Counted from the first letter of the stretch, positions 1,355-16,557 are shown. The stretch: DNA of 64,000 nt from Elusimicrobiota bacterium (GCA_027340875.1 DAIENX010000007.1:32001-96000); one strand, 5' to 3'. Numbers and translations: made by a program. Notes: generated by a model not told the origin, from the letters alone.

Positions 1355-2366
1355 GTCCCACCGCCTCTCCCGCGGCCGGCCGGGCGCGCAGTATCCGGGC
1401 CGCGGCGGCCGCGGGGATGGGGCGCAGTTCGCCGTCGCCGAACCTGTCGAGGTAGGCCCCGAAGACCCCGGCGCAGCGGTCCGCCAGCGCGCAGCCCGAG
1501 CAGCGCTCCGTCCTCGTCCGCTTCAGCGGCGGGACCACGCTCTTCTTAACCGAGAGCACGTTCTCCTTCAGGTAGGAGCGCCCGCGCTCCAGCACGAGCC
1601 GCGGGGAGAAGAGCAGGTCGTTGGAGAAAGGGGCCAGCGGGCCCAGCGCGCAGAAAGGGGCCCCGGAGACGACCAGGCGGGCGCCGTTGGCGCGTATGGT
1701 CCCGGCGGCTGAACGCACGGCGCGCGCGAAGTCCGGCAGCCTCACGGTCAGGCTCCCGTAGGAGGAGCGCACGTTCCCCCACGGTATCAGCTGCGACATC
1801 ATGTAGACCCCCGGCCGGCCGCGGGAGAAGACGTACTTCGCTATGTCCGCCGTTCTCCCGGAGTTGAGGGAGCAGACCACGGTGTGGCACATGAACAGCT
1901 TGAGCTTCCCGAAGCGTTCCACGTTCGAAAAGACCTTTTCGACCGTGGAGAAGGCGGACGGCATCCGCGTGACGGCGCGCGCCAGTCCCTCTTCGTTCCA
2001 GTGCACAGAGAGGCAGAGTTCGTCGATGTCCGGCAGCAGCCGTGCCGCCGCCGCGGGGTCGGCCAGTCCCGTGCCGTCGGTGGTGACCTGCACCGAGTAG
2101 CCCAGCAGCTTGGCTATGCGCAGTATGCGCCCGAACTGCGGATGCACGGTGGGCTCCCCGCCCAGCAGCGTCAGGTGCCCGGCGCCGCCGCTCCGGAGCT
2201 TCTTCATTATCGAGCAGGCCTCCGCGAGCGGCATGAAGCCGCCGCCGGAGCGCAGGCTGCGCGCCTCGCAGCAGAAGACGCAGCGGCGGCGGCAGACCTT
2301 GGAGATCCGCAGCTCGGCCCGCTCCCCGGCGGCGCCGGGGGCGCTCAGTAGGTCCTCTCCGTGCAT
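1347..2366 (-). CDS. Radical SAM protein (HxsC-like) with C-terminal Cys cluster
   Basis: CRRRCVFC (CxxxCxxC), GGEPT, TTDG; C-terminal CSGCALADRCAG. Start is ATG 2366 or CTG 2348. Confidence 0.9.
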   Translation of the reverse strand: MHGEDLLSAPGAAGERAELRISKVCRRRCVFCCEARSLRSGGGFMPLAEACSIMKKLRSGGAGHLTLLGGEPTVHPQFGRILRIAKLLGYSVQVTTDGTGLADPAAAARLLPDIDELCLSVHWNEEGLARAVTRMPSAFSTVEKVFSNVERFGKLKLFMCHTVVCSLNSGRTADIAKYVFSRGRPGVYMMSQLIPWGNVRSSYGSLTVRLPDFARAVRSAAGTIRANGARLVVSGAPFCALGPLAPFSNDLLFSPRLVLERGRSYLKENVLSVKKSVVPPLKRTRTERCSGCALADRCAGVFGAYLDRFGDGELRPIPAAAAARILRARPAAGEAVGHV

Positions 2367-3076
2367 ATGTTGTACTTCACGTAATTGGGCGCGCGGTCCT
2401 CGCGCACCCGGCTGTCCACGGCCCGCTGCTTCCGCGGCCTGGCCCCGTCCGGCCTGAGCGCGGCGTAGTCCACGTGCGTGTCCGTCTCGTTCTCCTTGAG
2501 GTCCCAGACCGCGCATTTCAGCCCGAGCGCCATCATCCCGGAGACGGTCTCCTTTATCCTGCCCTGGTTGGCCTTCAGGCGCAGCGTGTGCATCTCTATC
2601 CTAGTGCCGGGAAAGGACTTTATGTTCTTTATGGCCTTCAGCAGGGCCGCGTAGCTGCCTTTCTTCCTGGTCACGGCGTCGTGCACGGCCGCGTCCGGCC
2701 CGTAGACCGGCAGCAGGAAGGCGTTGACCCCGGCCGCGACCAGCGCGGCCGTCAGCCGGCGGCTGCGCAGCTTGACGCCGTTCGACATCAGCTCTATATA
2801 GGCGAAGCCTTCCTTCACTCCCATCCTGACCACGGACTCCAGCAGCCACGCGGGGGCCATCGTGGGCTCGTCGCCGCCGAGGCAGAGCCGCCTGACTCCG
2901 CGCCGGCGGAGCACCCGCATCAGCGCGAGGAAGCGTATCAGCACCTCGCGCCACCGCTCCTCGGTGAAGGTGAAGGAGGTCTTGTGCGGGTGCCTGTTCC
3001 GCTGGCAGAAGACGCAGTCGATGTCGCAGCCGAACGGGAACGCCAGCAGCAGCTTGTCCTCCTTCCTGGCGTTCAT
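2345..3076 (-). CDS. Short radical SAM protein (243 aa) without a C-terminal auxiliary Cys motif
   Basis: CDIDCVFC, GDEPT, MSNG, HDAVT; GGAGG RBS and ATGA overlap with the upstream stop at 3073-3076. Confidence 0.9.
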   Translation of the reverse strand: MNARKEDKLLLAFPFGCDIDCVFCQRNRHPHKTSFTFTEERWREVLIRFLALMRVLRRRGVRRLCLGGDEPTMAPAWLLESVVRMGVKEGFAYIELMSNGVKLRSRRLTAALVAAGVNAFLLPVYGPDAAVHDAVTRKKGSYAALLKAIKNIKSFPGTRIEMHTLRLKANQGRIKETVSGMMALGLKCAVWDLKENETDTHVDYAALRPDGARPRKQRAVDSRVREDRAPNYVKYNICTERTY

Positions 3077-4059
3077 GCGGCCTTCACCTCCGTTATGGGA
3101 CGGAAGAAAGGGGCCTGCTCCGGGAAGGCCTCGAGATACTTCCGGAAGATGCCTCCGCAGGAGCGCCGCAGCGCGCAGCGGCCGCAGGACTTCAGATAGA
3201 CGCGCCGCCGCGTCGGGCGCAGCGAGACCGTCTCCTTCAGGCCGGCGCGCCCGCCGGGGAGCGCCGCCCTCTCCACGGTCAGCCGCGGCGAGTAGTAGAG
3301 GTCGTTGGAAAGGTCGTAATGACCGTTCAGCGAACAGGCCGGCGCGCCGAAGAAGCGCAGCGTCACGCCGAACAGCGCGGCCTGCTCCCGCAGGTCCCCT
3401 ATGCGCCGGCCTATGGCGGTGAGGTCCGGAGCCAGCGAGGCGTAGTCCTCGCAGGCGCCGCCCTCCGGGGCCGGGTTGGAGATCATGTAATGCCGGACGA
3501 ACCCAGAGCGGGAGACCAGGCGCAGGATGTCCGAGACCAGCTTGAAGTTCTTTTTGACGGCCACGGTGTTGACCATCAGGAACAGCCTGCCGCCGCCGGC
3601 CTTGCCCAGGTTGTCCAGCGCGGCCATGGCGTCGTCGAAGCTGCCCTTCCTGCCGGTCAGCGCGTCGTGTATCTTGGCCGTAGGTCCGTGGCAGGAGAGC
3701 ATGGCCTCGTCCAGCAGCGGCGCGGTACGGCGGACGAAAGCGGGATCGGCGAAGGCGAGGCCGTTGGTGGTGACGCTGGTCCTGAACCCAAGCGCCCTGG
3801 CCGCACCGAGGGCGGCCGGCAGCGCGGCGCACAACGACGGCTCTCCTCCGGTGAAAGTGACGTGGGAGAAGCCGGCCCTGCGTTTCTCGCGCAGGATGCC
3901 TGCTATCTCCGACCCCGTCAGGTCCAGCGAGCCGAACCGGCGCAGCCTGTTCCGCTCGCTGCAGAACAGACAGCTGTTCTCGCAGGTGTAGGAAACGTGT
4001 ATCTCCAGCCGCTCCACCGCGGCTTTCTTCGCTCCAGCGCCGTGTACCGTTCGGCTCAT
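3073..4059 (-). CDS. Radical SAM protein (HxsC-like) with C-terminal Cys cluster
   Basis: CENSCLFC, FTGGEPS, TTNG, HDALT; C-terminal CGRCALRRSCGG; ATGA overlap at 4056-4059. Confidence 0.92.
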   Translation of the reverse strand: MSRTVHGAGAKKAAVERLEIHVSYTCENSCLFCSERNRLRRFGSLDLTGSEIAGILREKRRAGFSHVTFTGGEPSLCAALPAALGAARALGFRTSVTTNGLAFADPAFVRRTAPLLDEAMLSCHGPTAKIHDALTGRKGSFDDAMAALDNLGKAGGGRLFLMVNTVAVKKNFKLVSDILRLVSRSGFVRHYMISNPAPEGGACEDYASLAPDLTAIGRRIGDLREQAALFGVTLRFFGAPACSLNGHYDLSNDLYYSPRLTVERAALPGGRAGLKETVSLRPTRRRVYLKSCGRCALRRSCGGIFRKYLEAFPEQAPFFRPITEVKAA

Positions 4060-5183
4060 GCGACGCACCTCCCGGAACGGACCGGCTTCAACGCCGAGAA
4101 ACCCCTGGCCATCACGGTCCATATCCTGGCTCCGCGGCAGGCCGGGCCCAGCCGGCAGCGTCGGCAGGCGGAACCCTTCACGGTCAGCCTCTCCGCTATG
4201 AAGAACTCGGCCACCTTCATCAGGCCGGCCCTTGGCGTTATCTTTTTCACGGCCCTCCGCTTCTCCGGCAGGCAGGCCGGCGCCGGGACCGTCTTAAGGG
4301 AACCTTCCGCCCGCAGCAGCTCGAGGTCCGAGCAGAACTGTGCCATCACGCAGGACGCGCACCGCGCCCCCTTGCAGTGCATCTCCTCTCCGGCGTACAG
4401 GAAGGCCTCCAGCGGCCGGCGCATCCCCCGCACCTCGTCCATCAGCTTGCCGGGGTGCTGTATATACCGCTCGTTGCCCTCCAGCACTGCGGCGGGGAAG
4501 CGGTTCGTCCAGACGTGGGCGTTGACGGATTCGGAGAAGCGGAACACCTTTTCCAGCACCTTCCTCTTGGAAGCCGGGTCATAGGAAAGTTTCTTCCAGT
4601 TCTCCCACGCCCTGCCGAAAGGTATCAGGTTCAGCAGGTCGTACTCGTCCACGCCGAGGCGGTGCAGCAGGCCGACTATCTCGCGGACGGAGTCGGCGTT
4701 AAGCCTGTTCACCACGATGTCGCTGCTGACTATCAGGCCCGGCACCTTCTTGGCGTTGGCGATGGCCAGCAGGGTCTGCGCGAAAGCGCCGGGGACCCCG
4801 ACCAGCGCGTCGTGCTGCCCGGAGGTGGCCCCGTGCACGGAGAACGTTATCTCGGTGAGCCCGGCGGCCACAGCGCGCTTCAGAAAGCCATCGTAGCAGA
4901 ACATCCGCCCGTTGCTGATGGCCTGCACGTGGGTATAGCCGAGCTTCCTCGCCTTCGCCACTATGGCCGTGAATTTGGGGTGTATCGTGGGCTCTCCGCC
5001 GCTCAGCACCACCCGGCGGCAGCCCTCCGCCCGGCCCCGCCTCAGGTCGGCCTCTATCTCTCCGAGCGGCAGATGTTCGCCGCAGATGGAGTCCGCGTCC
5101 AGACAGAAAAGGCAGCGGTTGTTGCAGGCCCTGGTCAGCCTGACCCATTTCCGCTTTTCCGGGGCGGCGGTTCTTTCCGTCAT
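4056..5183 (-). CDS. Radical SAM protein (HxsC-like) with two C-terminal Cys clusters
   Basis: WVRLTRACNNRCLFCLD, SGGEPT, ISNG; C-terminal CKGARCASCVMAQFC and CRRCRLGPACRG; ATG at 5183. Confidence 0.92.
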   Translation of the reverse strand: MTERTAAPEKRKWVRLTRACNNRCLFCLDADSICGEHLPLGEIEADLRRGRAEGCRRVVLSGGEPTIHPKFTAIVAKARKLGYTHVQAISNGRMFCYDGFLKRAVAAGLTEITFSVHGATSGQHDALVGVPGAFAQTLLAIANAKKVPGLIVSSDIVVNRLNADSVREIVGLLHRLGVDEYDLLNLIPFGRAWENWKKLSYDPASKRKVLEKVFRFSESVNAHVWTNRFPAAVLEGNERYIQHPGKLMDEVRGMRRPLEAFLYAGEEMHCKGARCASCVMAQFCSDLELLRAEGSLKTVPAPACLPEKRRAVKKITPRAGLMKVAEFFIAERLTVKGSACRRCRLGPACRGARIWTVMARGFSALKPVRSGRCVA

Positions 5184-5187
5184 AGTT

Positions 5188-6135
5188 CTATCCAAGAAGT
5201 ATCCTCTCTGCCAGCCTGTCCGCGGCCATCCCGCCGGCCACGGCCTTGGCCCCGAAAAGCTTCTTCGCCATGCCGGAGTAATCAGGACGGCGTCCGCTCC
5301 CGGCGCCCAGAGCCTCCAGCCCGCCGGCCAGCATCTGCGCGGCCTGGCCCGGGTCCCTCGCGGCAAGGACGAGGTTGGAGTGATAGCACCTGCCGTCAGT
5401 GTCCACCGTGGTCCCGGGATTGAAAAGCGGCACCGGGCCTTCGCGCGAGGCGTTCTCGATGACAACGGCCCCGGAATCGGCCAGTTCCCTGATATGCCTC
5501 AGCGCCCTGGCGAGCTTGGCGAGGGCGGCCGGCGTCCATTCCCGGTAATAGGCCGGCAGGACGTTGACCCTGGGCGGTCGTCCGCGCGAAGCGGCTATCA
5601 CGCGCTTCAGGACCCCGAGCGAAGAAAGCGGGTCGCGCTCGGGCAGCAGCAGGTTCCAGATCAGGTTGGGCAGGGCCGCGAACCTGCGGCTGACGCTCAC
5701 CGAGGAGTTAATGTTCACCTGCACCCACGGCCGGGCCGAGAAATACCGGAGCTTCGCCGCGTCCAGCAGCAGGCCGTTCGTGCCCACCTCCGCGCGGCCG
5801 CGGTAGCCGGCCGCCTCCAGCATGCCTATGCCAGTCCTCACCAGCCCGAAGCGCAGCAGCGGCTCCCCGCCGAAAAACTTGACCGCGCCGCCCCCCAGGG
5901 CGGCGGAACAATACTGCTTTATAGCGCTTTTCAGGACCGCCGCGGGCATGTCCGCCCGCCCGGTCGCGACGGGACATTCGGGGCACGCCGACTGGCAGCG
6001 CCGGGTGAGGATAAGGGTCAGCTGCGGGGCCGGCGCGCCCCCGCGGCAGGCCGGAAGGGCCGAGTTACTGGCCCTTCGCCGGTTCCTTTCCTTTGGTCTG
6101 CTTGCCCTGCGGCTGTACGCCCATCCTCTTGTCAT
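5188..6135 (-). CDS. Radical SAM protein, start codon uncertain
   Basis: LTRRCQSACPEC, FFGGEPLL, GTNGLLL; the ATG at 6135 lies inside the upstream gene, so the true start may be later. Confidence 0.8.
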   Translation of the reverse strand: MTRGWAYSRRASRPKERNRRRASNSALPACRGGAPAPQLTLILTRRCQSACPECPVATGRADMPAAVLKSAIKQYCSAALGGGAVKFFGGEPLLRFGLVRTGIGMLEAAGYRGRAEVGTNGLLLDAAKLRYFSARPWVQVNINSSVSVSRRFAALPNLIWNLLLPERDPLSSLGVLKRVIAASRGRPPRVNVLPAYYREWTPAALAKLARALRHIRELADSGAVVIENASREGPVPLFNPGTTVDTDGRCYHSNLVLAARDPGQAAQMLAGGLEALGAGSGRRPDYSGMAKKLFGAKAVAGGMAADRLAERILLG

Positions 6136-7114
6136 CTTCAGCCTTCTGCTTTACCATGTCGGCCATTATCTTGTGGCGGAACGAGCTCGTGCAGTAGCCG
6201 GTGGCGAGCTTCTTGGCCAAAGGTGCGCAAACCGACGGGTCCCTGGACTGCAGCACGTGGAGCAGCCATTTCTCGTCCGGGGTGGAATCCCCCCTCACCA
6301 GCGCGGCGCTGAGCTGGCATTCTTTCTTCCGCGGGCCGCTCAGTTTGCCGCAGGCCGCCCGCCCGTTGATGAACAGGAAGTTGGATTCGCAGTTGGGCGG
6401 CAGACCGAGCGAGCGGCACTCCGGGGTCCGCCTCTTCGCGATAGAGTCGGTAATGAACCGACAGAAGTCGGGGCTGGGACGCCCCCCCCTGAACGCGTTG
6501 TTAACGAACTTCTCGCATTTCCCGTCGTTCGTCTTCCTGTTCAGGGCCGAATACATGAAATCGTAGTAATCGGCGGCGAAACAGACCCTCTCCAGGTTCT
6601 GCTGGACGCAGTCGAGACGGCCACCGCTGATAAGCCGGCAGACGCCGTAGTCCAGGAAGAGATCGAGTATAGTCTCATCCTCGGGCATGTTGCTGTTGGT
6701 ATTGAAGAAGAACCGGAAGTTCTTGTCGAAATGCCTGACGATAGCGTCCGGGTTGTCCGAGAAGGCCTTTATACAGTCGCTGTCGGCCGCGTTCACCGGG
6801 ACGTCCTCTGGCTGGGAATAATACCCGCCGGAGGCGCTTTCGTACTGGCCGCTCTGGGGGATATTGCTCTGGGTATCGGTCGACGCCTGGCTGACCAGCG
6901 CGGCGGCGTCCGGAGGAAGCGCCTGGCCGACCTCCTGTTGCTGGGCCGCGGGGTAGGCCGGAGCCGCCGGCTGCTCGATGCCTATCTTCGCGGCGTTCCT
7001 GTCGGTGACCATCTTCAGGGCGAAAAGCACGCCCATCAGCGCCACCAGCAGGCCGATAAGCAGCTTCGGGGACATCGCCCCGGGTCTGTAGCCTTTCCTC
7101 ATCGCGCTCACCAT
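6065..7114 (-). CDS. Membrane-anchored, Cys-rich (12 Cys) hypothetical protein, probably extracytoplasmic
   Basis: N-terminal hydrophobic segment LLIGLLVALMGVLFAL, Q/P/A-rich linker, 12 spaced Cys and no CxxCH; start overlaps the precursor stop. Confidence 0.8.
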   Translation of the reverse strand: MVSAMRKGYRPGAMSPKLLIGLLVALMGVLFALKMVTDRNAAKIGIEQPAAPAYPAAQQQEVGQALPPDAAALVSQASTDTQSNIPQSGQYESASGGYYSQPEDVPVNAADSDCIKAFSDNPDAIVRHFDKNFRFFFNTNSNMPEDETILDLFLDYGVCRLISGGRLDCVQQNLERVCFAADYYDFMYSALNRKTNDGKCEKFVNNAFRGGRPSPDFCRFITDSIAKRRTPECRSLGLPPNCESNFLFINGRAACGKLSGPRKKECQLSAALVRGDSTPDEKWLLHVLQSRDPSVCAPLAKKLATGYCTSSFRHKIMADMVKQKAEDDKRMGVQPQGKQTKGKEPAKGQ

Positions 7115-7404
7115 TGCCCGTGGCTGCCGTGCGAACCGTGCGAACCGTGCGAGCCGTGGCTGCTGTGCGAACCGTGCGAACCGTGCGAGGCGTGACTCAC
7201 GTGGCCCGACGCGTTGCCGCTGCTGTGGAAGTAGTTTGCATGCGCTAGCGCGTCAGCGTGCTCTGTCACCACTCCGACGGCGGTGGCTACCAGTCCGAGG
7301 ACGACCGCGGCCTTGACCACGTCGCTCTTGACTATCTTGCCCTCCTCGCTCGAAAGGAAGCGGGAAAGGTCTACCGACAGTTTCTTTTTCTGTTTTCCGG
7401 CCAT
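7108..7404 (-). CDS. hxsA: His-Xaa-Ser repeat precursor peptide (HxsA-like), 98 aa
   Basis: C-terminus HVS-HAS-HGS-HGS-HSS-HGS-HGS-HGS-HGS-HGQW; basic plus hydrophobic leader; directly downstream of an HxsB-like radical SAM gene. Confidence 0.9.
   Translation of the reverse strand: MAGKQKKKLSVDLSRFLSSEEGKIVKSDVVKAAVVLGLVATAVGVVTEHADALAHANYFHSSGNASGHVSHASHGSHGSHSSHGSHGSHGSHGSHGQW
7123..7203 (-). repeat. Nine tandem 9-bp units encoding the His-Xaa-Ser array
   Basis: Degenerate cgaaccgtg units on the + strand. Confidence 0.9.
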
Positions 7405-7423
7405 ATTTCGCCCCGTTCTCGGT

Positions 7424-8893
7424 CTATACGTGTATCCCGGCCGCTCCGGCGCTGCTGCCGGCCCAGGATTCGAACAGCTTCCTAACCTTCGGCTCGCGCA
7501 GCCGCGCGAACAGGTAGTCCATCACTCCGGTGTAGATCTCGCACCGGAAGTTGGGATGATGCATGTACAGGTCGTTGTGCTCCGAATAGTTGAAGACCGG
7601 GCATACGCCGCAGTAGGGCTTGTAGACGCAGGAGGAGCAGAGCGTCTGTATGTCCGTGACCGACGCGGTGACCACGCATTTCACCACTGAGCTCGACGCC
7701 AGGTCCGCGTAGGTCTCCTTCTTCAGGTCGCCCATGCAGAACGAATCGGTCCCCTCCGCCGCCAGCATGCGCCCCTCGTCGCAGGTGAAGACGCGGCCGT
7801 CGTAGTCGTAGGCGATCTGGCCTATCCCCGCCCCGCAGGGGGACCGGAGGTCCATGAAGTTCGGGTCGGTGCCGGTCAGGATCTTCCTCAGGAATATCCT
7901 GGCCGTGTGCTCGACCAGGGAGGCCTTCTTCTTCAGGTTCAGCTCTATGATGTAGTCCAGCGCCTTCGTGTAGAACTCTATGTACTCCCGCGCCGTGTAG
8001 CCTATCCCAGGCCAGGCCTTCTTCGCCGCGCCGAACGGATTGAGGAAGCGCAGGAAGATGGAGCGGGCGCCGATGCGGACGTATTCGTCCACTATGTCCT
8101 TGTGGCGCCCCAGGGACTGCTGCGTCACCGTGAGCAGGGCGTCCGGCCCGTTCTTGGTCCTGGCCGTGCGCTTCTTGATGGTCTTCCACCACTTCACGAC
8201 CTGGGCGTGGCTGCTGCCGCCGGTGGCCACCCGGTTCTTGTCGTGCAGGTCGGCGGGACCGTCCAGCGAGGTGCAGATGGCGACGTTGTGCTTGAGCAGG
8301 AAGTTCAGCCTCTCTCCGGTCATGGCCGACAGGTTGGTGACCAGGCTCAGGCTCACCTTCTTATCGAAGGTCTTCGTGCGGGCGGCGGCCTCGTTGACCA
8401 CGAACTCCAGCACGGGCCAGTTGAGCAGCGGCTCCCCGCCCTGGAACTCTATGGTGATGTTGTCGGCCGGGGAAGCGAAGATGGCGTCCAGCACCCTGGA
8501 GGCCGTCTCCCTGTTCATGTCCAGGCCGCGGCCGCTCCTCTTGGACGAGGCGTGGCAATACACGCAGTCGTGGTTGCAGCGCCGCGTCAGCACGGCTATG
8601 TGCAGCGCCGGGCCGGAGAAGAGGAAATGGTTCTTCTCGAGCCACCTCTCGGCCAGGCCGGAAAAGTCCATGTAGTCGCGGACGAGGCCCTTGCGGGAGA
8701 GGTCCTTGTACTCAGCCGAGTCCTTGTCCAGCTTGCCGGCCGCCAGCCGCGAGAAGACATCGCCGGAGATGAAGGCGTGCTCGCCTATGTCGTTGGTGAC
8801 CAGGTATTCGTCGCCCCACTTCTTGTAGCGCAGAAAACCGGTCTTCTTCGGGTCGAAGTCAATTCTTTCTTTTTGCTTTTCTGGCCTTCGCAT
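7424..8893 (-). CDS. hxsB: His-Xaa-Ser system radical SAM/SPASM maturase HxsB
   Basis: CNHDCVYC, IEFQGGEPLLN, TSLDGP; SPASM-type DLRSPCGAG...TCDEGRM...CSSCVYKPYCGVCP...C; lies between the HxsD-like and HxsA-like genes. Confidence 0.9.
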   Translation of the reverse strand: MRRPEKQKERIDFDPKKTGFLRYKKWGDEYLVTNDIGEHAFISGDVFSRLAAGKLDKDSAEYKDLSRKGLVRDYMDFSGLAERWLEKNHFLFSGPALHIAVLTRRCNHDCVYCHASSKRSGRGLDMNRETASRVLDAIFASPADNITIEFQGGEPLLNWPVLEFVVNEAAARTKTFDKKVSLSLVTNLSAMTGERLNFLLKHNVAICTSLDGPADLHDKNRVATGGSSHAQVVKWWKTIKKRTARTKNGPDALLTVTQQSLGRHKDIVDEYVRIGARSIFLRFLNPFGAAKKAWPGIGYTAREYIEFYTKALDYIIELNLKKKASLVEHTARIFLRKILTGTDPNFMDLRSPCGAGIGQIAYDYDGRVFTCDEGRMLAAEGTDSFCMGDLKKETYADLASSSVVKCVVTASVTDIQTLCSSCVYKPYCGVCPVFNYSEHNDLYMHHPNFRCEIYTGVMDYLFARLREPKVRKLFESWAGSSAGAAGIHV

Positions 8894-9320
8894 TTTTGTT
8901 TTCTTCCCACGGTATGGCTATTCCCAGAGCATCGGTCTTGTAGTCGCCGCTCTCCGCCTCTTTCAGCAGCTTCTCGATCTCCTTCTCCAGCTCCGCGTCC
9001 AGCACCGGGGCGGCGGCCGCCGGTTCCGCGGGTCTGGGCTGCGCGGAAAGAAGGGCCCTGACCACTATCCTCTCGCGCAGGGCCTGGTTCACGGCCGAGA
9101 CCTTGAGGCGGAAAGCGTGGTGCAGCAGTTCGTTGCGGAACTCGCCCTCCAGGTCGCGGCCCGCCGGGAACTTGCCGTTCTTGGACTCCAGCACGGCCGA
9201 GAGAGCGCCGCCCTTGTCCTTGCCCAGCTTCACGTACGCGGCCTTGGAGAACGTGTATGCCGCGGCATAGACGCACTCGATAGGGTAAACGGAAAGATCT
9301 ATCTTCACCTGTATTTTCAT
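8859..9320 (-). CDS. hxsD: His-Xaa-Ser system protein HxsD
   Basis: YPIECVYAAAYTF...GEFRNELLHHAFR...NQALRERIV pattern and position directly upstream of hxsB. Confidence 0.8.
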   Translation of the reverse strand: MKIQVKIDLSVYPIECVYAAAYTFSKAAYVKLGKDKGGALSAVLESKNGKFPAGRDLEGEFRNELLHHAFRLKVSAVNQALRERIVVRALLSAQPRPAEPAAAAPVLDAELEKEIEKLLKEAESGDYKTDALGIAIPWEENKNAKARKAKRKN

Positions 9321-9339: not shown

Positions 9340-9903
9340 TTATCTCAACCTGCAGCAAAGCATTTCGCCAGTAGCCTGTATACCGCCGGGAGGGCCCATC
9401 TGGTACATCTGGTTGCCGACGCGGGCGGCCACTACGGCGGTCTTGGCGCCGAGACACATCGTGACGACGCCGTAAGAATAGCTCTGCCAGGAACAGTCCA
9501 GCGGGACCGTCGGGTCGGACCAGCGGGCCAGGCCGTTGCCGTCCGAGGTAAGCAGCCGGCCGTTGGCCTGCGTGCCGTCCTGCAGCTCGAAGCTGCCGAC
9601 CACGTGGAGTTTTGCGGCCGGGGAAGGGGTGCCTATTCCAACATTGCCGCCGTCCCTGGCCAGCAGGGTCTGGCTGGTGGTAAGTATGCTGACGTAGCCG
9701 CCGTAGGGGGCAGGGTAATAAGTGGTCAGCGTAAGCGTCTCGGAGCCGATGAAGCCCGGATGCCAGCAGATGAACATGAGGGCCATCAGCGCCACCACCG
9801 TCTTCCGGTGCGTCCTGCCGAGCCTGTCCAGCCAGGCAGGCAGGCCGGGCTGGTGAAGCCAGTCCAGCGAGAACCTTATAACGATATCGCGGTTATTTTT
9901 CAT
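9340..9903 (-). CDS. Membrane-anchored hypothetical protein with TLTTYYPAPYG and GNVGIGT motifs (fibre/adhesin-like)
   Basis: Hydrophobic segment VVALMALMFICW, ETLTLTTYYPAPYGGY, GNVGIGTPSPAAKLHV, C-terminal Cys residues; 19 bp upstream of hxsD. Confidence 0.7.
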   Translation of the reverse strand: MKNNRDIVIRFSLDWLHQPGLPAWLDRLGRTHRKTVVALMALMFICWHPGFIGSETLTLTTYYPAPYGGYVSILTTSQTLLARDGGNVGIGTPSPAAKLHVVGSFELQDGTQANGRLLTSDGNGLARWSDPTVPLDCSWQSYSYGVVTMCLGAKTAVVAARVGNQMYQMGPPGGIQATGEMLCCRLR

Positions 9904-10088
9904 AGTCGCCGCCCCCGATAAGCGCGAAAAGCACATCCTTGCGCAACGGCCCCTACGGTCGGGACGCGTTGCATATCACACGGACCGCCACGGGCTTGCT
10001 CCCATGGCACTCACCGATCCGGATTTCGTTCGCGCGCCTACGCGCATGCTAGCCATCCGCCGGCTTACGCCGGCGATACTTCGACTAT
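9902..10088 (-). ncRNA. Candidate structured 5' leader RNA of the hxs operon
   Basis: Nested inverted repeats 9902-9908/10082-10088 and 9922-9928/10029-10035; hairpins 9943-9972, 9987-10008 and 10058-10075; lies between promoter and first ATG. Confidence 0.5.
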
Positions 10089-10254: not shown

Positions 10255-11733
10255 TCAGCTGCCGGCCTTTATCCCTCTCGACCTGACGAACTTGTCGAGG
10301 TCGAACTTCTCGAAGGGCTGGTAATTCTTCTGCCGCCAGGGCTTGTTGGTGATGAAGCTCCAGCCCATCTTGATGAACATGTTGAGGTAGGTCCTATGGA
10401 GCGGCTTCTTCGAGAAGAAATAGTTCCCGAGGAACTTCCTGTTCACGATAAGTGCCTTCCCGATCCATTTTTTATAGTACTTGTCGGCCTCCCCGACCGA
10501 CATATCCGCGGTCCTGGTTATCGCGTTGAGCCAGTTGAACTGCGAGAAATCCGTCACCTCTATCGCGCCCATCTTCTTGCATTCGTCGTAATAGGGGGTG
10601 CCCGGCAGCGGCGTGGTGAAATCCGGGCCCACGATGTCGCAGTTCTCGATCAGGAAGTCGAGGGTATTGTGCAGGTCCTCCTTGGTATCCCACGGACTGC
10701 CCCACATCAGCATTCCCATGATTATGAAATTGTGCTTCTGGGCTATCTTTATGGCCTTGTTTATCACCTCGAGGGTCTGCGGCTTCTGCAGCCTTTGCAG
10801 TTCGCTGGGCTTCGAGGTCTCTATCCCCAGCATGATCTGATACACGCCTATCTCGTTGAGGTCCTTCATCAGGCTCTCGTTCCTGATCACGTTGAAGCAG
10901 GTCGTCTGTATCCACATCAGGACGCCCAGCTTCCTGGCCCGCATGAGCTTTATGAACTCCCGGGTGCGGTCCTGGTCGTGGAGGAAGTCGTTGTCCCCGA
11001 CGTAGAAGACCTTTTTGCCGTATTTCTTGCTCAGCAGCTCGAGCACGTCCACCATGTACTTCGCCCCGTGCCCGCGCCAGGAATGCTGCCAGTGTATGGC
11101 CTCGCTGCAGAACCTGCAGTGCCCCACGCAGCCCCTCGCGAAATTCACGGTGAAGCCGACCTTGCCGCCGAACGGGGCCAGGCCGTACCTCTCCATCGGG
11201 AACAGGTCGAAGGCGGGCATCGGGAGCTCGTCCAGGTCCTTTATCATCGGCCGAGGGGCGTTCTTTACGGCCTCTCCGTCCTTGAGCCAGGCCAGGCCTT
11301 TTATCCCCGAAAGGTCTCTCTCCTTCTTCTCCACGGCCCGGAGCAGCTCCATCAGCGTGACCTCTCCCTCGCCCGTGACGATGTAATCGAACAGCCCGCT
11401 TTCAAGGGCGTCCTTCCACATGTAGGAGCCCATATAGCCGCCGGTCACTATCTTGGCGCCGGGCAGCACCTTTCTCGCTATCTTCGCGGCGTTCACCGTA
11501 TCCTGCCAGAAAGCCGTTACCGACCCGGTTATGGCCACGACGTCCGGCCGCTCATTATCGAGCGTCTCCGCCGTTCTGTCCCATGGCTTATCGGGCGCGA
11601 CGGCGGCGTCGAAGACCTTCGTTTCGAACTCTTTCCTGGCTACCGCGGCGAGGTATATGAGCGACGGCGAGGCCGTCACGCCCCTGAAAAATTCCCAGTA
11701 TTGGTGGAGCGGTTCAAGAAAAAGGACTTTCAT
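10255..11733 (-). CDS. Cobalamin-binding radical SAM protein (class B methyltransferase/BchE-like architecture)
   Basis: N-terminal B12-binding-like domain (LIYLAA...PDVVAIT...VTGG...DYIVTGEGE), then ARGCVGHCRFC, GIET, TPLPGT. Confidence 0.9.
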   Translation of the reverse strand: MKVLFLEPLHQYWEFFRGVTASPSLIYLAAVARKEFETKVFDAAVAPDKPWDRTAETLDNERPDVVAITGSVTAFWQDTVNAAKIARKVLPGAKIVTGGYMGSYMWKDALESGLFDYIVTGEGEVTLMELLRAVEKKERDLSGIKGLAWLKDGEAVKNAPRPMIKDLDELPMPAFDLFPMERYGLAPFGGKVGFTVNFARGCVGHCRFCSEAIHWQHSWRGHGAKYMVDVLELLSKKYGKKVFYVGDNDFLHDQDRTREFIKLMRARKLGVLMWIQTTCFNVIRNESLMKDLNEIGVYQIMLGIETSKPSELQRLQKPQTLEVINKAIKIAQKHNFIIMGMLMWGSPWDTKEDLHNTLDFLIENCDIVGPDFTTPLPGTPYYDECKKMGAIEVTDFSQFNWLNAITRTADMSVGEADKYYKKWIGKALIVNRKFLGNYFFSKKPLHRTYLNMFIKMGWSFITNKPWRQKNYQPFEKFDLDKFVRSRGIKAGS

Positions 11734-11925
11734 TACGGTTTCTCCCTGCTGGCCGGCCGCAAGATCGAACGCGGCTCCGCGTCATCCCTCCTCACGACGG
11801 GAACACGGAACCCCGCATCTACAAACTACCACATTACTGACCCTTAAGCCAAGAGCGGCGGCTTTCATCGGGAGGGGCGCGGGACAGTTGGTCCCGCGGC
11901 GTCCGCAGTGCCGCGGTCCAGGGTA

Positions 11926-11954
11926 TTGACAGCCGCCGGGTTTCGTCTTATAAT
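11926..11954 (+). promoter_or_regulatory. Perfect-consensus sigma70 promoter
   Basis: TTGACA (11926-11931), 17-nt spacer, TATAAT (11949-11954). Confidence 0.9.
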
Positions 11955-11981
11955 CGGATTATACGGGTGACAGGAGGAAAG

Positions 11982-12092
11982 ATGCCTGCGATCGCTAAAT
12001 CTCCGGTAAAACCGGCTAAAAAACTGAACAAAACGCTGAAAGCGGACAAGAAACTGTCGCGGTACTGCCGTTCCGGCAGGGTTCTCTGGTAA
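11982..12092 (+). CDS. 36-aa putative RiPP precursor MPAIAKSPVKPAKKLNKTLKADKKLSRYCRSGRVLW
   Basis: AGGAGG at 11972-11977, ATG 11982, TAA 12090-12092; sits between the consensus promoter and a SPASM radical SAM gene; too short for the ORF track. Confidence 0.8.
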   Translation: MPAIAKSPVKPAKKLNKTLKADKKLSRYCRSGRVLW

Positions 12093-12094
12093 AC

Positions 12095-12154
12095 CGGTCC
12101 GATAACGCGACGAAGTCCCCGTAACCGCGGGGACTTCTCGTTTCCAGCGGACCG
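12095..12154 (+). promoter_or_regulatory. Long intergenic hairpin between precursor and maturase (attenuator/stabiliser)
   Basis: gaagtccccg 12112-12121 / cggggacttc 12128-12137, plus outer cggtccg 12095-12101 / cggaccg 12148-12154. Confidence 0.7.
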
Positions 12155-12168
12155 TCAAACGGAGAAAG

Positions 12169-13656
12169 ATGGCACAAAAACCGGCATTCCTCTTCGAGAA
12201 ACTCGGGCGCCGCATCGGCGTCTCTACCGGCACCGGCGATTTCTACGAGCTGTCCCCTGCCGTCTACAAGGCCCTTAAGAAGTGGAATAGCGCGATCGAA
12301 GAAAAGGGCGGAAAACTCTCGACCGCGGCGGCGGAAAAGCTGGCCCGCGGCTTTTCGGTCCCGGCGGAGATCTCCGCTCTGTTCCCGCTGCGCGCCGCCA
12401 GGTCCGGGCCTCCCGACATCCGCGCCCGCCTGACCGACCTGACGCTGAACATAACCTCCGACTGCAACCTGCGCTGCGTCTACTGCTGGAACGATACCGG
12501 GAAATATTCGAACGGTTCGTTCAAGAAGGCGAAGAGCGCCCGTCCGGAAGCCGCGGCCTGCCCTCCCCCGATGTCCGTGGAAACGGCCTGCCGGGCCGTG
12601 GACCTGCTGGTCAAGATGAGCCGCGGGGAAAAACAGCTGGTCGTGGATTTTTACGGCGGGGAGCCTCTTAAGAACCTGCCCACGCTCCTGGGCGCGGTCG
12701 CCTACTGCAAGGCCCTGGGAAAGAAAACGAACATCCGGTTCCATTTCCTGCTGGCCACCAACGGGACCCTGCTGACCCCGGCGCTGGCCGAGAAGCTGCT
12801 GGGACTGGGGGTACAGATAGCGGTAAGCGTGGACGGCCCCAGGAAGCTGCACGACCGGAACAGGCCCTTTCACGACGGGAAAGGCAGCTTCGCCGCGATA
12901 GCGCGAAACCTGCGGAACATGCGTCCGGAGACGAGACGCAGGCTGGTCGGGAGGACGACCGTCACCCCTTACTACACGGACATGGTCGCGCTTTACCGCA
13001 ACCTAAAGGACCTGGGGTTCGAGCGCGTGGAGATCTTCGAGAGCGAGGACGCGTGCCACAAGATAACCCCGGGGAGGGAAGCCGTTTTCTTCCACAAGGA
13101 AAAGGACTTCCGCAGGATCCTCGGGGAGTACGATCTGCTGGCCGGGAAATATTCGGACGAGGCCGTAAAGGGCGTCCTGGATTACGGAAAGACCTTCTTC
13201 AACAGGTTCTTCAAGCTGATGCAGAGGCTTTATTACAACCAGCAGGTCACCGGCGGGTGCCCGGCGGCCCAGGGCCAGATAGCGGTGTCGTCCGACGGCG
13301 AGATCTTCCCCTGCACCTCGTTCATAGGGATAAAGGCCTTCTCCCTCGGGAACGTGCACTCCGGGCTGGACCGCAAAAAACATCTCTCGCTGCTGCGGAA
13401 AACCGCCGGAAGGTTCAGGAGGTGCGCCGGCTGCGAGATCTTCAGCGTCTGCGGGACCACCGGGTCCTGCCTGAACATCAACCATTATTTCAACGGGGAC
13501 GTATCCAGGCCTCATGCCAGGAGTTGCAGGCTGTTCACGGAAAAGATAAAGCTGGCCATGGCCGTGCTCGCCGACCTTTCGGAAAGGATGCCGGACAGGC
13601 TGGAGGCTCTTTTCGGCCACGATCCCGTAGGACGTAGAGGGAACGAACTCTATTGA
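12169..13656 (+). CDS. Radical SAM/SPASM peptide maturase with N-terminal RRE-like extension
   Basis: CNLRCVYC, DFYGGEPL, TNGTLL, SVDGP..HD..R; SPASM-type GCPAA...DGEIFPC...CAGCEIFSVCGTTGSC...C; about 85 aa precede the core. Confidence 0.9.
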   Translation: MAQKPAFLFEKLGRRIGVSTGTGDFYELSPAVYKALKKWNSAIEEKGGKLSTAAAEKLARGFSVPAEISALFPLRAARSGPPDIRARLTDLTLNITSDCNLRCVYCWNDTGKYSNGSFKKAKSARPEAAACPPPMSVETACRAVDLLVKMSRGEKQLVVDFYGGEPLKNLPTLLGAVAYCKALGKKTNIRFHFLLATNGTLLTPALAEKLLGLGVQIAVSVDGPRKLHDRNRPFHDGKGSFAAIARNLRNMRPETRRRLVGRTTVTPYYTDMVALYRNLKDLGFERVEIFESEDACHKITPGREAVFFHKEKDFRRILGEYDLLAGKYSDEAVKGVLDYGKTFFNRFFKLMQRLYYNQQVTGGCPAAQGQIAVSSDGEIFPCTSFIGIKAFSLGNVHSGLDRKKHLSLLRKTAGRFRRCAGCEIFSVCGTTGSCLNINHYFNGDVSRPHARSCRLFTEKIKLAMAVLADLSERMPDRLEALFGHDPVGRRGNELY

Positions 13657-13727
13657 ACCCGGCGACCGCGGTCAACGGACAATGTCCGCAAGGGTCAATA
13701 CCCAGGGCCGCGCCGCATATGCTTCCC

Positions 13728-15263
13728 TCAGCGCTTCCCGGAGCCGGACGCAACGTATTCCGCGGCGAGCTTCGCCGCGCTGCCGCCGGATTGTATGGCC
13801 ATGGTCATCCCTGAACCGGGAGAAGTCCACTGTCCCGAGAGGAAAAGACCGCGCACGGGGGAGACCTGCGGCAATCTGTCGAACAGCGTCTGGCCGACCT
13901 TGTTCTCCCAGCCGTAGATCGCCCCCTCGTCCACCCCGGTCCGCGCCTCTATGGAGGCCGGGTCGAAGATCTCCATCTCGCGCACCTTGCTCCGAAGGCC
14001 CGGCAGCACGCTCTCGACCATGTCTATCAGGCGGTCCGCACGGGCCGCGCGGTTCTTCTTCCAGTAAGCCCGGCCGCGCCAGGGAGAGAGCGTGATGACC
14101 GCCAGCGAGCTGCAGCCGCGCGGCGCCTGCGAAGGATCCGCGAGGGAATGGAGGCAGAGGCCGAACGAGCTGATCTCCCCCTGCGTCGTCAGAGCGTAGT
14201 TCTCGTCGTGATCGAGGCCGCGGTAGAAGCTGGTGGCGTAGACCGGCGGCCTCTCGAGCCGCCCGATATCCAGCTCCGCGCCTATCAGCAAATGGAACGC
14301 GGACAGCGAGGTGCTCATCCCGCGCAGGCGCGAGAGGTAAGGCGCCGGCGCGACGCTCGCACCGAGCATGGCGCCGAAGGTAAGCCTGGCCGGGGCGTTG
14401 GAGATGACGCAGCGCGCGTCCACGCGGGTCCCGTCCTCGAGCTCCACCCCCTTCGCCGCGCCGGCGGCGGTAAGTATGCGCCGCACGGGCGCGCCGGTCC
14501 TCACCGTCCCGCCGCGCGCTGTTATGGAGCCGGCCAGCGCCTCGCTCAGGCTGCGCGAGCCGCCCCTGATATAGAAGGGCTTCTCCGCCGTGAAGGCGCC
14601 CAGCATGGCCACCATCATCATGGCGGGCACCCGGCCCGGCGGCACGCCCAGGTATACCCAGGGAGCGCCGAGTATGGCCACCAGCTCGGGGGACCGGAAA
14701 TGCTCGCGGCAGTAATCCCCGAAGGTCCGCTTGGCATAGCGCATCATGGCCGCCGAATTGACCATATTGCGCAGTTCGGCGGCCGGGCTGGAGCATTCCC
14801 TGAGGCGGTCCCTCCAGCCGCCGGACTTCAGCATGCGGTCCATCCGGTAGAGACTGCGGCCCTGCTCGAGCATTTTGCTTATCGCGCGGCGCTCGGCGGG
14901 GAAACGCCTGCAGAGGGCCGCCTCGAGCTCGCCGGCGTCGGCGGGGAACAGGAAGCGGAGCCCCGGGAACACCACCTCCATGAAAGCGGGCAGCTCGATG
15001 AACTCCACCTTCCGGTCCACCCCCATCTCCCGGAGCAGTCCCGCGCTCTGGGTACCCGTACTGCCGAGGCCGTAGACCTGGTGCAGCGCCCGCTCGAACG
15101 AGTAGCCGCCGCGCCTCACTACGCTGGCGTTGCCCCCCACCTCCTCGTTGCGCTCGGCCAGGAAGACCTTGTAGCCGCGGCTGGCCAGCAAGGCCCCCGC
15201 CGACAAGCCTCCGAGGCCGCCGCCTATCACCGCCGCGTCGAAATCAGTGCCGTTCTTTTTCAT
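13728..15263 (-). CDS. Phytoene desaturase (CrtI)-like FAD-dependent oxidoreductase
   Basis: VIGGGLGGLSAG dinucleotide-binding motif, GG...G(Y)SF, C-terminal GLFLSGQWTSPGSG. Confidence 0.85.
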   Translation of the reverse strand: MKKNGTDFDAAVIGGGLGGLSAGALLASRGYKVFLAERNEEVGGNASVVRRGGYSFERALHQVYGLGSTGTQSAGLLREMGVDRKVEFIELPAFMEVVFPGLRFLFPADAGELEAALCRRFPAERRAISKMLEQGRSLYRMDRMLKSGGWRDRLRECSSPAAELRNMVNSAAMMRYAKRTFGDYCREHFRSPELVAILGAPWVYLGVPPGRVPAMMMVAMLGAFTAEKPFYIRGGSRSLSEALAGSITARGGTVRTGAPVRRILTAAGAAKGVELEDGTRVDARCVISNAPARLTFGAMLGASVAPAPYLSRLRGMSTSLSAFHLLIGAELDIGRLERPPVYATSFYRGLDHDENYALTTQGEISSFGLCLHSLADPSQAPRGCSSLAVITLSPWRGRAYWKKNRAARADRLIDMVESVLPGLRSKVREMEIFDPASIEARTGVDEGAIYGWENKVGQTLFDRLPQVSPVRGLFLSGQWTSPGSGMTMAIQSGGSAAKLAAEYVASGSGKR

Positions 15264-15417: not shown

Positions 15418-15804
15418 TCAGAGCAGCACTACCAGCAGGGTCGCGCCGAACTTTTCCTTCAAAAAGGCCCGCGCCTCCTCCGCGATGTCCCTGAAATCCT
15501 CCAGGTCGGCGGGAGAGGCGGAGAGGAAAGAGGCCGGGTCCCGGACCGCCAGCACGTAACCCTTCGCCGGGACCTCGTTCGGGAGCGAACGCAGGCAGTC
15601 CAGCAGGGCGTCCCAGTTCCCGCCGAAATAGGCCGGGAACCTGAACGCCGACGAGACCGCGGCCAGCAGCCCGGCCTTGTCCCTGGCCGCAGATCCGTCT
15701 ATGAAGGCCGTAAAATAATCCGGAGGAGGGAACCTTTTCAGGACCTCCTCCTCCGAAGCGGACCCCTTGAGGTCCAGGAACAGCCCGCCGGCGCCCGGGG
15801 GCAT
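15418..15804 (-). CDS. Barstar family ribonuclease inhibitor
   Basis: FRFPAYFGGNWDALLDCLRSL motif; 5 bp downstream of the RNase gene. Confidence 0.9.
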   Translation of the reverse strand: MPPGAGGLFLDLKGSASEEEVLKRFPPPDYFTAFIDGSAARDKAGLLAAVSSAFRFPAYFGGNWDALLDCLRSLPNEVPAKGYVLAVRDPASFLSASPADLEDFRDIAEEARAFLKEKFGATLLVVLL

Positions 15805-15809
15805 GCGGC

Positions 15810-16370
15810 TCAGTAGACCACCGTCAGCAGGATAAAGTTCTTGTAGTGGTCGGGGGTGTAGTAGATCTTCTCGCCGCCGCCTATTATCACCCGCTCCGAG
15901 CCGCGGGCGCTGAGGTCGGGGGCCACCTGGTAGGTGGTGCCGCCTATGGTCACCGTGTGCGGCGCGTTGCCGGTCAGAAGCGTGTACTCGTGGTAGTAGC
16001 CCTTGGGCTGCTGCGGCAGGCGTCCTTCCTTGTTGGAGAAGATCGCGCCGTCCTGGGAATACGGGAGATGGTTCCCGTTGTAGATGTCGGAGATCAGCTT
16101 CATCAGCGCCTTGATGCGGGCGCCGTCCTGGATGGCGGGGCTGAAGTCGCGGCCGGGAGCGGGCGCGCCGGCCGAGGCGCGCGTTTCCGCAGCGGGAGCG
16201 GCCATCGGAACGATAATCTCATTCGGGGAGGGGATCGCGTCCAGGCCCTGCAGCACCACCGCGCCGGACAGGTCGCCCAGCGCTGTCGCGCCTGGGCGCT
16301 CGGCGAAGACCCGTGGCGAAACCGCGAGCAGGGAAAGTATTACGGCGGTCTGAAACCATCTTTTAAGCAT
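15810..16370 (-). CDS. Secreted guanyl-specific ribonuclease (barnase/RNase Sa family)
   Basis: Signal-peptide-like N-terminus; DGAIFSNKEGRLP...YYHEYT...ERVIIG...YYTPDHY. Confidence 0.9.
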   Translation of the reverse strand: MLKRWFQTAVILSLLAVSPRVFAERPGATALGDLSGAVVLQGLDAIPSPNEIIVPMAAPAAETRASAGAPAPGRDFSPAIQDGARIKALMKLISDIYNGNHLPYSQDGAIFSNKEGRLPQQPKGYYHEYTLLTGNAPHTVTIGGTTYQVAPDLSARGSERVIIGGGEKIYYTPDHYKNFILLTVVY

Positions 16371-16557
16371 GTTCTTTTTCCTTGTGTTGTAATGGCGCCG
16401 ATCGCGCTCGCGTTCCGGCATTACCGCAGTTATATTTTAGTATATAACGTTTTTCTGCCTAGGGCCCTAGGACCCAGACCCGCCTAGGCCCAAAGACCCA
16501 GAGAACCAAAAGAAAGGCCGGGGCGGGCCCGGCCTTCCCTTGACCGGCTGGAGCCGG

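Follow-up and report, generated by a model that had tools for sequence, protein, structure and literature searches.

The SCIFF or thermocellin system is the described system that most resembles the locus discussed here. In this system, the small precursor CteA (ScfA, TIGR03973) is encoded directly upstream of the maturase CteB (ScfB, TIGR03974; PDB 5WGG and 5WHY), which combines a recognition element (RRE) for peptides that are made by ribosomes and modified after translation (RiPPs), a radical S-adenosylmethionine (rSAM) domain and a SPASM domain with seven cysteines, and no dedicated transporter is present. The mycofactocin (MftA/B/C) and pyrroloquinoline quinone (PQQ; PqqA/D/E) systems have an invariant C-terminal core, no exporter and enzymes that are encoded elsewhere. 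In PMC8326336 and PMC8172795, the open iron of one auxiliary cluster of CteB is described as binding a cysteine of the substrate. In this report, a small peptide gene and the adjacent maturase gene at 11926-13656 (+ strand) are described from a stretch of 64,000 nucleotides of an Elusimicrobiota bacterium (GCA_027340875.1, DAIENX010000007.1:32001-96000), which is referred to as the window and whose positions are used throughout. Together, these two genes are a real, unnamed precursor-maturase pair of uncultured bacteria.

The peptide gene (11982-12092, + strand, ATG at 11982) encodes 36 amino acids. The initial annotation had claimed a perfect promoter, an AGGAGG and a 36-codon open reading frame (ORF) with a Lys-rich leader, and each of these is found as described: a sigma-70-type promoter TTGACA-N17-TATAAT at 11926-11954 (+ strand, 12 of 12 consensus matches), a Shine-Dalgarno sequence AGGAGG at 11972-11977 (+ strand), and a peptide with a Lys-rich N-terminus, a leader motif K-K-L-N16 and a core that ends in C29-R-S-G-R-V-L-W36. 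The sole Tyr, Cys and Trp residues of this peptide are Y28, C29 and W36, all located in the core as had been claimed. Three promoter-like sites are present in 11000-15000, compared with a shuffle mean of 0.5, and only 9 perfect sigma-70 consensus sites occur in the whole 2.8-Mb genome. Upstream of homologous peptide genes, a promoter with at least 10 of 12 matches is found in 33 of 66 cases (a count without shuffle control), and the homologous starts are preceded by Shine-Dalgarno-like words, the starts themselves having been picked by Shine-Dalgarno score.

The 36-residue ORF is a real conserved gene under purifying selection. Multiple maturase loci (91, duplicates and the window itself included) were fetched, and an ORF ending in [YF]-C-R-x-G-R-V-L-W-stop lies beside the maturase in 68 of them. 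At six family loci without the peptide, contig-end truncation leaves at most 67 bases upstream, and the remaining 17 loci are distant relatives (best segment 26-40%); the peptide is present at every family locus that has sufficient upstream DNA. A separate search of 401 Omnitrophota genomes found a core-bearing peptide at 15 of 15 loci. The 12-residue core of clade 1 is identical in 56 loci, and the 43 different DNA sequences that encode it show none but synonymous changes. There are 56 distinct peptides, with a length of 26-47 amino acids and a net charge of +7 to +22. In all 56, the C, R, G, R, V, L and W of the core are invariant, and Asn is found in 52 of them at position -21 from the C-terminus (N16 in the window). 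Position -6 (Ser31 in the window) holds Ser in 48 peptides and Cys in the other 8, and at position -9 (Tyr28) there are 45 Tyr and 11 Phe. The check that had been proposed, which was to look for a conserved small ORF upstream of maturase homologs, has thereby been run and gave the same core; from the expected YC..G..LW pattern, C, G, L and W stood as invariant residues and the Tyr did not. Maturases at 37-42% identity mostly have a second core type, F-C-R-C-G-R-V-L-W, and the two enzyme clades pair with different core types.

The earlier suggestion of a possibly new family agrees with the database searches, as neither NCBIfam nor Pfam names the peptide. NCBIfam gave no family for 32 of 32 peptides, and the peptide or its profile has no match in NCBIfam, Pfam, PDB or the ESM Atlas, which alone is no proof of novelty. 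In a full-text literature search, the core motif was absent, and topic searches returned no family description, although atlases of rSAM RiPPs or their supplements may list the precursor. The distribution of the pair is patchy: it is present in 14 of the 401 Omnitrophota genomes and in 3 of 43 genomes of the window's genus. These surveyed genomes are incomplete and mutually related, and hence are not independent samples. Viral contigs gave 11 loci, all of them weak partial matches of 25-38%, and 35 plasmid records are all below 60% identity, of which the eight listed are at 26-28% and are annotated as QhpD/ScfB-type or unannotated.

Several loci have an unusual arrangement. In L004, the peptide gene (6486-6569, - strand) lies tail-to-tail with the maturase and has its own promoter-like site, which is unique among the 68 loci. 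In L113 (G090:C19, 300-8400), a clade-1 and a clade-2 pair are located 3.4 kb apart, with a UbiA-like prenyltransferase and a variant rSAM between them and four B12-binding rSAM enzymes (B12-rSAMs) downstream of both. L072-L074, L076 and L078 contain a sister group of maturases (30-32%) that lack the peptide; in L072-L074 and L076, the sister maturase lies between a Tat-signal-like protein of 350 amino acids and a CARDB/FlgD-Ig secreted protein, possibly as a protein-modifying, QhpD-like system. Upstream of the distant maturases in L082-L090, short peptides with an acidic leader and a Cys-Cys pair are present, which we take to resemble geopeptide-type precursors.

The maturase gene was found at 12169-13656 (+ strand), where a radical SAM/SPASM gene had been claimed, and encodes a CteB-like RRE-rSAM-SPASM protein of 495 amino acids with a Radical_SAM match and a weak SPASM match. 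The rSAM cysteines are Cys99, Cys103 and Cys106 (CX3CX2C), and seven SPASM cysteines (364, 382, 419, 422, 428, 434 and 453) are conserved. An AlphaFold model of the maturase (predicted local distance difference test, pLDDT, 86) opens with three strands that are followed by three helices (DSSP: E6-11, E14-19, E25-27, H30-46, H52-61 and H66-69), and a predicted RRE-like domain covers residues ~5-70 (12181-12378, + strand). CteB is the best PDB match by profile (E 3e-60) and ranks first in Foldseek. With VIA-align, 408 residues align to CteB from residue 2 onwards (Z 38.3, rmsd 2.7, 26% identity), and among other SPASM structures anSME, the anaerobic enzyme that matures sulfatases, has a Z of 31.4 and TigE a Z of 26.4. 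Because of this fold and the CteB alignment from residue 2, the N-terminal extension of ~85 amino acids can be assigned as an RRE, which the initial annotation had called frequent in such enzymes.

The maturase family is discrete. It comprises ~107 clusters at 48% identity or more and a second clade near 40%, and the scores of 50%-identity representatives are 810, 461 and 420 bits, after which a plateau near 220 is reached. The closest named relatives are 76-81% identical and labelled Elusimicrobiota. In NCBIfam, 58 models matched, and among the best 25 listed none reaches its cut-off (PapB 215 bits and a cut-off of 340, nif11 197 and 519, QhpD 188 and 453, ScfB 171 and 425). The residues D90, D160, E288, E291 and E293 show no variation across the 107 rows of clade 1 and the 12 of clade 2, apart from truncated ones, whereas 69 outgroup enzymes do not share this invariance. 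Such family-specific acidic residues suit a core with two invariant Arg residues. In L019, L020, L029, L032, L047 and other loci, no in-frame ATG, GTG or TTG is present near the homologous maturase start, and simple ORF calling on such Omnitrophota maturases gives products of 362-472 amino acids.

The pair resembles SCIFF/CteB in its working, but on the tested features it does not belong to the SCIFF, PapA/PapB, His-Xaa-Ser (Hxs) or anSME systems. A precursor beside the maturase, the rSAM and SPASM cysteines and an N-terminal RRE fold are present, as in RRE-dependent rSAM/SPASM RiPP systems, whereas genes for leader removal or export are lacking among the recurring neighbours of 76 loci. The domain order, the small precursor directly upstream, the modelled leader position on RRE strand 3 and the lack of a dedicated transporter are shared with SCIFF. 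In contrast to the six cysteines of the SCIFF precursor, there is one here (two in clade 2), the peptide is short, Lys/Arg-rich and ends in GRVLW, and the maturase remains far below the TIGR03974 cut-off. Also, the CX2CX5CX5C spacing, a four-residue insertion with Tyr339, a Thr that follows the second SPASM cysteine where CteB has His, the acidic barrel and a co-occurring B12-rSAM separate the pair from SCIFF. The score of the peptide hidden Markov model on two SCIFF leaders was reached by 19 of 500 shuffles for one and by 292 of 419 scored shuffles for the other. A search of the window's own genome with TIGR03973 gave no signal, the controls included, and thus carries no information. An unannotated six-Cys SCIFF precursor was observed upstream of a ScfB-like gene in L169 (from 1174), a record of 2.6 Mb that is classed as a plasmid and has just 4 annotated features.

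Similar differences are found for the other systems. PapA/PapB (freyrasin; NF047865) provides the top NCBIfam model for the maturase (E 1e-63), but its cut-off is not reached. The TigE/TvgB cyclopropyl synthases (PDB 8VPO) share the RRE, the seven SPASM cysteines, a conserved Tyr in the barrel-SPASM linker and an invariant core Val, but no repeating TIGSVS-type precursor is present here and the structural match is weaker than that of CteB. No GYW is present in the maturase sequence; Tyr339 aligns five residues away from this TigE motif in a low-confidence stretch. The anSMEs (PDB 4K36-4K39) share the SPASM fold (Z ~31) and act on Cys or Ser, but they lack an RRE, have a protein substrate and score 70 bits on the A1 profile, and the maturase has 65 bits on TIGR03942 compared with a cut-off of 349. 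The mycofactocin and PQQ systems differ in that the RRE is fused here, no conserved peptidase is present and the core is another one; their models are not among the best 25 of the 58 NCBIfam matches of the maturase. For the Hxs system, the maturase has 74 bits compared with an HxsB/HxsC cut-off of 370.

The peptide is very probably the substrate of the adjacent maturase. The predicted complex of both has a score of 0.81 compared with 0.02 for the best control, and the mark for this score is reached by 116 of 157 solved pairs and by 2 of 215 mismatched pairs. The runs share at least 90% of the contacts, with a partner pLDDT of at least 56. In this model, the leader binds the RRE (peptide residues 12-16 on RRE residues 24-28) and the core sits in the barrel, with residues 23-36 near C364, C382 and C434. 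The following route can be proposed. The peptide would be transcribed from its own promoter and translated, as its conservation suggests. Its K-K-L-N leader may then lie on strand 3 of the RRE, so that the core threads into the barrel, where the model and the conservation suggest that the acidic residues hold the two Arg residues. By analogy with CteB, Cys29 would bind the open iron of auxiliary cluster I, and the 5'-deoxyadenosyl radical would take a hydrogen from a nearby core residue, which would give a thioether ring and a mass change of -2 Da. Candidate acceptors are Ser31 (Cys in clade 2) and the invariant V, L and W. This chemistry is judged rather likely. In clade 1, Cys296 could occupy the putative open site of auxiliary cluster I, as could Tyr339 or Tyr355, but as a family-wide ligand Cys296 was rejected, being Gly in 12 of 12 clade-2 enzymes. 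A B12 enzyme might subsequently modify the same peptide further, for example by C-methylation, or use the product. Since no conserved protease or exporter is found, the product probably has an intracellular role, unless housekeeping enzymes process it. A RiPP in the sense of a cleaved and exported product is unsupported, and the invariant core and the missing exporters suggest a function that is not antibiotic.

An intercistronic hairpin is located between both genes at 12095-12154 (+ strand, -39 kcal/mol, z -5.07), and none of 200 shuffles gives an equally good fold. A T-run of the terminator type is lacking, and no terminator-like sites were found in the scan of 11000-15000. The hairpin probably stabilises the short peptide mRNA or reduces read-through. 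It is single-copy in its own genome and was rejected as a genomic repeat. The long hairpin of the layout that had been called typical is thus present in the window, but it is lineage-specific: a z of -2 or lower is found in only 20 of 68 loci, mainly in Elusimicrobiota and clade 2, and a family-wide element was rejected.

B12-rSAMs are the commonest neighbours of the maturases. Neighbours were mapped for 76 loci, which form 42 groups at 85% identity, and B12-rSAMs are present in 19 of these groups. One highly conserved subfamily (~519 amino acids) is found at 15 loci from 12 groups, behind both clades, and is the immediate next gene in 13 of the 15. When the 401 Omnitrophota genomes were scanned, with only three candidates per genome scored, a match to this subfamily was found in 19, namely in every one of the 14 pair genomes and in five of the 387 remaining ones. 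Twelve pair genomes have the enzyme at 73-82% identity, in G407 a 72% piece is located where a contig ends, and G061 has a relative at 56%; at 72% identity or more, the enzyme is present in 13 pair genomes and in 0 of the 387 others. Four of the 12 full-length copies adjoin the pair, and eight are located on another contig. Within two families, the same genomes hold the pair and the B12 gene (2 of 38 and 2 of 47), and the pair is missing from three genomes with relatives at 46-50%. The B12-rSAM is also present, at 72%, in two additional pair genomes that are closely related to G064, and two independent 120-row protein lists have 13 contigs of equal size in common. Fisher values for this co-occurrence are overstated, because the genomes are related. 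A variant rSAM (4 of 14 pair genomes, 3 others) and a U32 family (11 of 14 and 10 of 387) of the same gene islands fit less well and were rejected as obligate partners. The earlier claim that no protease or transporter gene is adjacent was borne out, and none recurs among the neighbours of the 76 loci (genome-wide partners were not searched), but the co-occurring B12-rSAM on the opposite strand had been missed. An S11/beta-lactamase-like protein and a TauE protein are each near only 3 of 42 groups.

In the window, the candidate third component is a BchE-like B12-rSAM at 10255-11733 (- strand), divergent from the pair. The ~519-residue Omnitrophota subfamily itself was not found in this genome, where 10255-11733 is the best match (29-31%). 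Among the 43 genomes of the genus, orthologs at 63-67% are present in G009, G036 and G004, so that this type is found in 3 of 3 pair genomes (the window's own genome G000, G009 and G036) and in 1 of 40 others (G004); in G009, the ortholog lies on another contig. In each of the four Elusimicrobiota pair genomes tested, the Omnitrophota enzyme has this type as its best match, and in a FastTree analysis of 65 island B12-rSAMs, both types group with one other protein with 96% local support, at limited sampling. The best NCBIfam model is BchE (214 bits, cut-off 481), and the enzyme is below every cut-off listed. Its structure model shares the B12-binding and rSAM fold (TM 0.63-0.72) with B12-dependent rSAMs such as BchE, OxsB, TsrM, CysS, TokK and MgmA, but it is only 16-19% identical to all solved ones. 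Since OxsB, AprD4, TsrM, MgmA, CysS and TokK are matched about equally and no RRE is seen in the model, the fold likeness assigns no particular reaction. The B12-rSAM is likely to be functionally linked to the pair, it is probable that the family has a third, B12-dependent partner, and the three genes together hint at an undescribed pathway. For the combination of a precursor/maturase cassette with leader binding and a Cys29 thioether plus this functional link, the chances are considered even.

Multiple observations weigh against parts of this combined proposal. The high complex score may reflect likeness and not binding, because the CteB-CteA complex has already been solved. The Cys-X3-Asp motif that PapB needs in its substrate, according to PMC8172795, is absent, as Cys+4 is Arg in 56 of 56 peptides. 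TigE also has an RRE and seven SPASM cysteines, yet PMC10878394 describes C-C bonds and a Tyr-capped cluster; here, Tyr339 on the family-specific insertion and the invariant Tyr355 could be such capping residues, and Cys382 is followed by Thr383, where CteB has His and anSME has Asp. These features would fit a C-C or C-O crosslink at Val34, Leu35 or Trp36, or an anSME-like beta-carbon oxidation of residue 31, with Cys29 serving only as an anchor of the peptide at the cluster. V, L and W vary as little as C does, position 31 is only ever Ser or Cys, both of which are oxidised by anSME, and Cys21 of CteA binds the cluster without being crosslinked (both from PMC8326336). A weak further point is that the first Cys of one SCIFF precursor is as far from the leader motif as Cys29. 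However, the closest named models and structures (PapB, nif11, QhpD and ScfB; CteB by Z) form thioethers, anSME and TigE are both structurally more distant than CteB, and the GYW motif of TigE is unmatched; this chemistry is considered rather unlikely. Tyr-dependent crosslinks were rejected as conserved chemistry, and those through the Tyr hydroxyl are unlikely because Phe replaces Tyr in 11 of 56 peptides. A role of the small ORF as a leader peptide in regulation or as a small nucleic-acid-binding protein, with an enzyme that acts on, for example, sulfatases, is very improbable. The histone-like Lys-rich N-terminus, a hairpin 3' of the ORF and sulfatase-family genes near 6 of 42 locus groups would fit, but 48 of 68 loci lack the hairpin, the tail-to-tail arrangement in L004 cannot attenuate, the RRE is not covered by anSME structures and the core co-varies with the enzyme clade. 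A single-Cys, Arg-rich, Trp-terminal core together with an acidic active site without His could extend the thioether or C-C chemistry of the CteB clade.

The role of the B12-rSAM is less certain. Against a fixed partnership, the B12-rSAMs of Elusimicrobiota and Omnitrophota are 30-33% identical and the maturases 55-60%, which means that they do not co-diverge; five Omnitrophota genomes without a family maturase have B12 relatives at 46-57%, and no peptide match was found in the four of these that were searched. In addition, G004 (~450 contigs) has the B12 ortholog and neither pair gene was found, and the modelled enzyme has no RRE. Tailoring of the peptide by the B12 enzyme is put forward tentatively, at somewhat below even chances, and because of the missing co-divergence and the relatives without the pair, two other relationships stay live: the B12 enzyme may depend on the peptide, which is rather unlikely, or may merely hitchhike, which is about as improbable. 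Hitchhiking would leave a stand-alone two-gene RiPP, such as a signal or antimicrobial, with the B12 enzyme sharing a mobile radical-SAM island. The pair has its own promoter, occurs in unrelated contexts (for example archease/RtcB/serS-like genes in 7 loci) and in few, non-independent genomes, another island gene (the variant rSAM) is also enriched, and the peptide is strongly cationic. However, the close B12 subfamily tracks the pair in 13 of 13 genomes although most of its full-length copies are encoded on a different contig, the agreement is also seen within two families, and the co-occurrence recurs in Elusimicrobiota with a different B12 subfamily, so that this explanation is considered unlikely.

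Dependence would mean that the modified peptide or its C-terminal fragment is an intracellular cofactor, activator or building block for the B12-rSAM, presumably following a PQQ/mycofactocin-type logic, and that the B12-rSAM has an envelope glycan or lipid as its target and works alongside the U32 enzymes, glycosyltransferases and CrtI-like proteins of its gene islands. An invariant core and the lack of a conserved exporter or protease among recurring neighbours are consistent with this, as are the enrichment of the U32 family in pair genomes and the GT2, PMT_2, sulfatase and TPR proteins that recur as neighbours. A single B12 subfamily is served by either peptide clade, and in G090 one copy of it comes after both. 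A B12 relative is present in every pair genome tested, yet broader relatives exist without the pair. No dedicated peptidase is seen, the U32 family, which follows the B12 gene in G004 and G009, was not found in G000, G036 and G065, and we know of no precedent for a B12-rSAM that needs a peptide-derived cofactor. It is doubtful that the peptide or its tail is a new ribosomal cofactor or activating subunit for an envelope-tailoring B12-rSAM clade of Omnitrophota and Elusimicrobiota under oxygen-free conditions; if true, it would be the third peptide-derived cofactor logic after PQQ and mycofactocin, with the four-gene block of the window as its minimal cassette. For the preferred reading of a functionally linked pair and B12 enzyme, the tight co-occurrence provides, for one of the numerous orphan B12-rSAMs of envelope islands, the first candidate for a substrate or cofactor, and also a compact gene set (peptide, SPASM maturase, B12-rSAM and perhaps a CrtI-like oxidoreductase) from phyla almost without characterised natural-product chemistry.

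The fourth gene of this block, which is the smallest context seen, encodes a CrtI/phytoene-desaturase-like FAD oxidoreductase (13728-15263, - strand) that is convergent with the maturase gene. Orthologs at 73-80% are present in G009 and G004, and a 36% relative lies beside the B12 gene in G036. In five Omnitrophota pair genomes, only one match (26%) was found, and the protein was rejected as an obligate partner; it is possibly a lineage-specific member of the same pathway. L155 (G004:C216, 1150-14500) is an island that combines two U32 genes and several B12-rSAMs of great length with a CrtI-like gene and the 10255-11733 ortholog, in the genome in which no pair was found.

A second peptide-modification system, the Hxs cluster, is located beside the pair at 1347-9320 (- strand), and a link between the two was rejected. 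On this strand, it includes an HxsA4 precursor (7108-7404), HxsB (7424-8893, 489 bits), HxsD-like (8859-9320) and HxsC-like (4056-5465) genes, a protein of 349 amino acids without a family match (6065-7114) and a further rSAM (5188-6135), with more rSAM-like ORFs down to 1347. Between this cluster and the B12-rSAM, an ORF of 198 amino acids (9340-9936, - strand) encodes a protein that contains a hydrophobic segment and is matched by neither Pfam nor NCBIfam. On the other side, a Barnase-like secreted ribonuclease followed by a barstar-like inhibitor is found at 15418-16421 (- strand).

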